A program made the position numbers and the translations under genes. Below, in pieces: positions 807 to 1,058 of a stretch of DNA of 1,341 nucleotides. Positions within the stretch are counted from its first letter, which is position 1. Each line of letters opens with the position of its first letter. The DNA comes from Escherichia coli (GTDB lineage: Bacteria > Pseudomonadota > Gammaproteobacteria > Enterobacterales > Enterobacteriaceae). The notes under the pieces were generated by a model. It had not been told where the DNA came from. It did no database searches and was given only the letters and a program-made list of their open reading frames with translations. Where the stretch lies: assembly GCF_003334255.1 (NCBI RefSeq), contig NZ_QOWU01000161.1; one strand, 5' to 3'.

Positions 807-883
807 TGGCGCGTTGTACTGGATTCGAACCAGTGACCGGTTGCTTAGAAGGCAATTGCTCTGTCCGGCTGAGCTAACAACGC
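807..883 (-). tRNA. tRNA-Arg (anticodon UCU, reads AGA/AGG); argO-like prophage tRNA
   Basis: Manual cloverleaf, 77 nt: acceptor GCGUUGU/ACAACGC, D-stem GCUC/GAGC, anticodon loop CUUCUAA, T-arm ACUGG-UUCGAAU-CCAGU, discriminator G, encoded CCA. Lies 13 nt downstream of the previous tRNA. It differs from chromosomal E. coli argU as I recall it. Confidence 0.85.
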
Positions 884-896
884 AGGGTACAGATAA

Positions 897-973
897 TGGA
901 CCGCCATCGAGGACTCGAACCCCGCGCAGCCAGCTTCGAAGGCTGGCGCTCTATCCCGATGAGCTAATGGCGG
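897..973 (-). tRNA. tRNA-Arg (anticodon UCG, reads CGA/CGG); argN-like prophage tRNA
   Basis: Manual cloverleaf, 77 nt: acceptor CCGCCAU/AUGGCGG (C1:G72), D-stem GCUC/GAGC, anticodon stem CCAGC/GCUGG with loop CUUCGAA, T-arm CGGGG-UUCGAGU-CCUCG, discriminator U, encoded CCA. Lies 9 nt downstream of tRNA-Ile. Confidence 0.8.
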
Positions 974-982
974 TATGTGATA

Positions 983-1058
983 TGGTGGCCCTTGCTGGAT
1001 TTGAACCAGCGACCTGGCGATTATGAGTCGCTCGCTCTCACCACTGAGCTAAAGGGCC
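983..1058 (-). tRNA. tRNA-Ile2 (anticodon CAU, presumably lysidine-modified, reads AUA); ileZ-like prophage tRNA
   Basis: Manual cloverleaf, 76 nt: acceptor GGCCCUU/AAGGGCC, D-stem GCUC/GAGC, anticodon loop CUCAUAA, T-arm GCUGG-UUCAAAU-CCAGC, discriminator A, encoded CCA. The body closely resembles E. coli ileX (tRNA-Ile2) as I recall it, rather than elongator or initiator tRNA-Met. A27-C43 mismatch at the base of the anticodon stem. Confidence 0.8.

Follow-up and report, generated by a model that had tools for sequence, protein, structure and literature searches.

The window, the whole 1,341-nt stretch of Escherichia coli DNA analyzed here, carries three intact tRNA genes that make up the ileZ-argN-argO cluster of Shiga toxin (Stx)-converting phages, located between the antiterminator gene Q and the lysis genes of a lambdoid prophage. 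As the best explanation, which we hold with considerable though not full confidence, we propose that this is an Stx-type cluster in the late region of a non-Stx lambdoid prophage, where the tRNAs would be expressed both independently and with the late genes and would supply decoding capacity for codons rare in the host. The trio is already known and occurs very commonly in the lambdoid prophages of E. coli. Little about it is new: public records of phages and of E. coli annotate the cluster, and RefSeq chromosomes match the window at 100% identity. It is useful as a landmark that marks the lambdoid late region and a cargo slot, which holds the Shiga toxin genes in related phages and genes for TerB and DUF3927 proteins here.

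Three tRNA genes with rare-codon anticodons

ARAGORN detected exactly three tRNA genes in the window, all encoded on the minus strand (the strand had not been given in the original prediction), in the 5´ to 3´ order CAU, UCG, UCU:

983..1058, minus strand: ileZ, tRNA-Ile2(CAU), candidate reader of AUA via lysidine (ARAGORN, Rfam, sequence identity, RefSeq tRNA-Ile)
897..973, minus strand: argN, tRNA-Arg(UCG), cognate to CGA and CGG (ARAGORN, Rfam, identity to annotated argN)
807..883, minus strand: argO, tRNA-Arg(UCU), cognate to AGA and AGG (ARAGORN, Rfam, identity to annotated argO)

The genes are separated by 9 nt (974..982) and 13 nt (884..896), such that both the coordinates and the spacers of the tightly packed trio agreed exactly with the prediction in the ARAGORN and Rfam analyses. 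Each gene has a complete cloverleaf and its own encoded 3´ CCA. All three matched Rfam RF00005 over the full length, with 72.5 bits for ileZ, 55.1 bits for argN and 65.7 bits for argO; given the gathering score of 29 and E-values between 1e-15 and 8e-11, these matches are far beyond chance. Apart from the three tRNAs, no Rfam family reached its gathering score anywhere in the window. Matches to Plastid-ycf2, YrlA, SNORD103 and Six3os1 fell far under their gathering scores and were overlapping the tRNAs or antisense, and were discarded as chance or tRNA-like artefacts.

By default, ARAGORN labels the CAU gene tRNA-Met. This label was ruled out by comparison with the K-12 tRNA genes (NC_000913.3), as the body of the tRNA is far closer to ileY (70/76, 92%) and ileX (68/76, 89.5%) than to the elongator metT/metU (54/78, 69%) or initiator metZ (49/78, 63%) genes. 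Given the higher identity to ileY and ileX, we assign the gene to tRNA-Ile2; the RefSeq label on the JE86-ST05 chromosome is tRNA-Ile. The ileZ acceptor stem, GGCCCUU/AAGGGCC, has the C4-G69 and C5-G68 pairs, the features by which E. coli TilS tells tRNA-Ile2 from tRNA-Met, which has U4 and A5. Both pairs, the CAU anticodon and an identical anticodon loop are shared with ileX and ileY. Unlike these host genes, ileZ is carried by a phage, in a cluster with two Arg tRNA genes, and it has A27xC43 where ileX and ileY have G27-U43.

ArgRS recognizes its substrates through C35, U36 or G36, and A20 in the D-loop, and these identity elements are present both in argN (anticodon UCG, D-loop AUCGGGAUA) and in argO (anticodon UCU, D-loop AGCCGGACA). 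The argO gene shares its anticodon, anticodon loop, G73 discriminator and A20 with K-12 argU, the classical UCU rare-codon tRNA, but the two are only 71% identical overall, indicating a separate lineage for argO rather than recent copying from the host. Among the K-12 Arg tRNA genes examined, the anticodons are ACG (four genes), CCG, UCU and CCU, with no UCG; to our knowledge a UCG Arg tRNA is absent from K-12, so that argN would add an anticodon that the host does not have. We also noted that argN is atypical in its C1-G72 first pair, U15 and U73 discriminator, the K-12 Arg tRNAs examined having A73 or G73.

Which Arg tRNA bears which name had been left open. Compared with the named genes of the Stx2-converting phage Stx2a_1447 (AP012536), the trio showed 76/76 identities for ileZ (100%), 74/77 for argN (96.1%) and 76/77 for argO (98.7%). 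On the basis of this identity to genes so named, argN is the UCG tRNA and argO the UCU tRNA, which settles the point; the phiP27 record also carries the names argO and ileZ. The predicted isotypes (Ile2-CAU, Arg-UCG and Arg-UCU) are therefore borne out by ARAGORN together with the K-12 comparison, no other isotype being assigned by the tRNA software once the CAU ambiguity is resolved, and the AP012536 identities bear out the proposed match to the Stx-phage cluster in make-up and order. No relevant paper on ileZ/argN/argO, or on rare codons and tRNAs in 933W, came up in a full-text search of a limited paper collection, and a 2026 preprint on phage tRNAs did not deal with Stx-type phages. The naming of the cluster rests on the annotations in AP012536 and phiP27 and on PMC2858043 and PMC3491183.

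The trio precedes a cargo slot in a lambdoid prophage late region

The full 1,341 bases of the window are 100% identical in four RefSeq E. coli chromosomes, including that of JE86-ST05, where the region belongs to a lambdoid prophage integrated beside yccA/tusE. The genes of this prophage are ordered integrase, exonuclease, replication genes, RusA, Q, a 65-aa ORF, DNA methyltransferase and ileZ-argN-argO, followed by TerB, DUF3927, a SASA-family esterase, DUF1378, DUF826, holin, lysozyme, Rz, terminase and head and tail genes. Q lies 1.7 kb upstream of the trio, and in the local coordinates of the JE86-ST05 extract Q is at 22722..23405, the tRNAs at 20807..21058 and the holin gene at 16627..16842. 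The trio thus lies downstream of Q and upstream of the lysis cassette, in keeping with the lambdoid late region originally proposed; a chromosomal tRNA operon outside a prophage was not encountered, since all nine of the nine loci inspected are phage or prophage late regions. Three protein-coding genes flank the tRNAs within the window:

1099..1341, minus strand: 3´ end of a DNA methyltransferase gene (ORF; PADLOC MTase_II, 3e-164; PHROG DNA methyltransferase)
205..636, minus strand: TerB-domain protein, 143 aa, TciA-like (Pfam PF05099, E = 2e-12; PHROG 632; RefSeq)
44..208, minus strand: DUF3927/TciB-like small membrane protein, 54 aa (PHROG 1470 "TciB-like", E = 3e-24; RefSeq)

The full methyltransferase gene, at 21099..22157 of the JE86-ST05 extract, encodes 352 aa. 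The TerB protein matches PHROG 632, "tellurite resistance", over its full length (6.5e-69), and the DUF3927 ORF overlaps the TerB stop codon by 4 nt. A role of these two proteins as a defence system was considered and rejected, as neither matches any PADLOC defence model.

The cluster of Stx2 phages (Stx2a_1447, and also the 933W-type phages and phiP27) resembles that of the window in its anticodons, order, strand and 9- and 13-nt spacers, as well as in the upstream methylase gene, the promoter-like block and the downstream terminator-like hairpin. It differs in what comes next: stx2A and stx2B follow the methylase and tRNA block in Stx2a_1447, whereas TerB and DUF3927 follow in the window (44..636, compared with 3718..4958 of the AP012536 extract), with no stxAB directly after the cluster at this locus. 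Since TerB and DUF3927 occupy the stx2AB slot, we regard the window as part of a non-Stx lambdoid prophage with an Stx-type cluster. The slot is bounded by the candidate tRNA terminator on one side and the esterase gene on the other. The same organization, with rusA, Q, DNA methylase, tRNA genes, stxAB, yjhS and lysis genes, has been described (PMC3491183).

The TerB and DUF3927 pair also has known relatives in the TciA/TciB modules of phage JLK-2012 (94% identity over window positions 1..831) and phage Evi (88.7% over 59..1076), where it is found in the same place, between a tRNA cluster and the lysis genes. The tRNAs ahead of it differ, as JLK-2012 has Asn, Thr and Gly tRNAs instead of Ile, Arg and Arg, and the middle tRNA of Evi is called Lys(UUU).

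To assess how widespread the cluster is, we searched 5,426 complete E. coli genomes with the tRNA block (window positions 800..1065), which was found at 7,564 places in 3,060 genomes. At least 80% of the block was present in 2,578 of the 5,426 genomes, at up to 12 places per genome, nearly all of them chromosomal. Roughly half of the E. coli records with a match had their best place in the 80–90% identity band, the sampled entries of which list only tRNA-Arg and tRNA-Ile. The full methylase-tRNA-TerB-DUF3927 arrangement of the window was limited to 275 genomes. The comparison with Stx-phage genomes that had been suggested yielded 294 matching records in the phage collection, mostly Stx2-converting phages.

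Promoter-like and terminator-like signals bracket the tRNAs

Consensus and hairpin scans revealed candidate transcription signals on both sides of the trio:

1068..1096, minus strand: sigma-70 promoter-like site, TTGAAG-17 nt-TATTAT, candidate dedicated tRNA promoter (consensus scan)
769..792, minus strand: intrinsic terminator-like hairpin, GGCUCGC-UUUU-GCGGGCC followed by U6 (scan; RNAfold, -14.0 kcal/mol)

The promoter-like site matches 9 of 12 consensus positions, starts just past the methylase stop codon, and has a -10 element ending 9 nt before the ileZ 5´ end. Its TTG and TTAT-AT columns are invariant across the seven aligned relatives. In phage Evi and strain WP5-S17, where Q replaces the methylase gene upstream, the block retains 65–82% identity whereas the preceding 32 columns fall to 31–38%, such that either a methylase gene or Q can adjoin the same promoter block and the block stays with the tRNAs. 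For the corresponding region of Stx2 phages from O157, PMC2858043 names a "pS tRNA promoter". The terminator-like hairpin, with a 7-bp stem, starts 14 nt after argO and is kept in five of the seven relatives, including Stx2a, Stx2c, phiP27 and Evi. Together, the two signals bracket the three tRNAs only, and the conserved promoter-like site before ileZ and terminator after argO suggest a self-contained tRNA cassette within the Q-dependent late operon.

Further upstream, on the minus strand at 22635..22732 of the JE86-ST05 extract, we noted a promoter-like site over the Q stop codon and, some 55 nt further on, a GC-rich hairpin with a T-run. This pair, just downstream of Q, looks like the pR´ and tR´ of the prophage, and if so would place the cassette inside the Q-dependent late operon as well; two more terminator-like sites are found between it and the tRNAs. 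Another terminator-like hairpin, on the plus strand at 593..611, is antisense within the TerB 5´ end. It probably is due to chance, two terminator-like sites having been found in the window against 1.3 expected from shuffles.

Cognate codons are enriched in the prophage and in tRNA-less lambda

The original prediction had called for a comparison of rare codons in phage genes and in the host. The five codons cognate to the trio (ATA, AGA, AGG, CGA and CGG) were counted in annotated genes, giving the following frequencies per 1000 codons:

Host core genes, same strain (n = 37): 10.0
Prophage genes (n = 52): 37.1
Prophage late genes: 33.7
Prophage early and other genes: 42.7
Phage lambda, all genes: 41.4
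Phage lambda, late genes: 30.2
TerB gene (1 ATA and 1 AGA in 143 codons): 14
stx2A (15 ATA in 319 codons): 87.8

In line with the classical codon-supply idea, the cognate codons are about 3.7 times commoner in the prophage than in the host core (odds ratio 3.8, p = 6e-45). ARAGORN found 0 tRNA genes in phage lambda, yet lambda has the same level of cognate codons as the prophage, indicating that a lambdoid phage can live without these tRNAs. The lambda control weakens codon supply as the reason for the presence of the trio and is a caution that rare-codon enrichment alone is no proof that phage tRNAs are needed. A codon-supply function is plausible.

The adjacent TerB gene had been predicted to use one AGA and one ATA codon and to depend in part on the trio for its translation. 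The two codons are present as described, but the predicted dependence did not hold up: with 14 cognate codons per 1000, TerB is near the host core average of 10, far under the 37 of the prophage and among its lowest-scoring genes, so that few genes are less likely to depend on the trio. The trio fits stx2A far better than it fits the TerB cargo of the window.

Conservation of ileZ and lability of the middle tRNA

We compared the cluster in an alignment of seven otherwise mosaic relatives. The ileZ gene is identical at 75–76 of 76 positions in all seven, consistent with purifying selection, and the argO block is 92–96% identical. The alignment shows the middle gene to be evolutionarily labile: the window and Stx2a_1447 have an intact Arg-UCG gene; phiP27, one Stx2c phage and a pair of E. 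coli prophages have a disrupted anticodon arm and yield no tRNA call; and in phage Evi ARAGORN calls a tRNA-Lys(UUU) on the same acceptor stem. In five of the extracts compared with the window, the middle gene is located, in local coordinates, at 1626..1726 (L013), 1627..1706 (L014), 3343..3419 (L015), 2578..2677 (L016) and 2578..2683 (L017). Given the disruptions in phiP27, the Stx2c phage and several E. coli prophages and the other anticodon in Evi, argN at least is dispensable.

A proposed mechanism and its alternatives

In the explanation that we favor, the cluster would be transcribed by two routes: from its own sigma-70 promoter, with termination at the hairpin-U6 after argO, giving basal expression in lysogens, and, once the prophage is induced, within the late transcript that starts at pR´ and is antiterminated by Q. 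The three CCA-encoded tRNAs would be released by RNase P and 3´ trimming. TilS would convert C34 of ileZ to lysidine, allowing charging by IleRS and reading of AUA, while argO would read AGA and AGG and argN would read CGA and CGG. The predicted net effect is an added capacity to decode five codons, rare in the host core and about 3.7 times commoner in the phage. Translation of late genes and cargo would gain, most plausibly the ATA-rich stx2A in Stx phages and much less so TerB.

Several other readings need to be weighed against this one. The cluster could act as a lysogenic-conversion module, expressed constitutively from its own promoter and benefiting mainly the host, through rare-codon-rich acquired genes such as those of virulence islands and other prophages, instead of the late genes. 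The conserved promoter-like site and terminator around the tRNAs only would fit such a role, as would the occurrence of the cluster in nearly half of the complete E. coli genomes, often in multiple copies, and the frequency of the cognate codons, which is no lower in early and other prophage genes than in late ones (42.7 compared with 33.7 per 1000). We consider it possible but somewhat doubtful, as the host already has ileX/ileY, argU, argW and argX, and the frequent decay of argN speaks against a strong benefit from that gene; it is also compatible with our favored explanation and does not exclude it. Less likely in our estimation is that the tRNA genes matter mostly as DNA, as recombination anchors for swaps of the cargo slot (stx, TerB/DUF3927 and others), the tRNAs being in part passengers. 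Homology to the Stx phages does end close to window position 758, shortly after the terminator, at the point where these phages carry stx2AB in place of TerB/DUF3927; JLK-2012 has its TerB module behind another tRNA set, and its homology, coming from TerB, takes in the final 25 nt at the 3´ end of argO; and either the methylase gene or Q is found upstream of the same promoter block. A pure anchor has no need of intact anticodon arms, though, and the cloverleaves of ileZ and argO remain perfect, and their identity elements are kept, in divergent contexts, which argues for selection on the RNA.

Two of the three tRNAs are Arg tRNAs, and tRNA-encoding phages of the T4/T5 type are known to replace host tRNAs cleaved by nucleases. 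A counter-defence role could be imagined on these grounds, in which the trio would provide spare or resistant copies of host tRNAs cut by anticodon nucleases or colicins (e.g. colicin D, which acts on tRNA-Arg), but we find this hard to credit. In their anticodon loops, ileZ and argO do not differ from the host ileX/ileY and argU and show no sign of escape substitutions, for which reason we rejected an anti-nuclease reading of these tRNAs; moreover, no nuclease is encoded nearby and neither adjoining cargo protein matches PADLOC. Only slightly less remote is a broader speculation that joins several of these elements: a promoter-to-terminator tRNA cartridge, independent of Q in the lysogen and with an exchangeable middle slot (Arg-UCG, Lys-UUU in Evi, or decayed), might be a lysogenic-conversion trait in itself, by which different prophages would differently reset rare-codon decoding in the host or its resistance to tRNA-Arg toxins.

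Substitutions in the Arg tRNA genes of the window

Relative to Stx2a_1447, argN of the window has three substitutions, one of which gives a G51-U63 wobble where Stx2a_1447 has G-C. The argO gene has a single substitution, which changes A27-U43 to A-C. This T-to-C change at position 43 leaves an A27xC43 mismatch in the window, and six relatives keep A-U.
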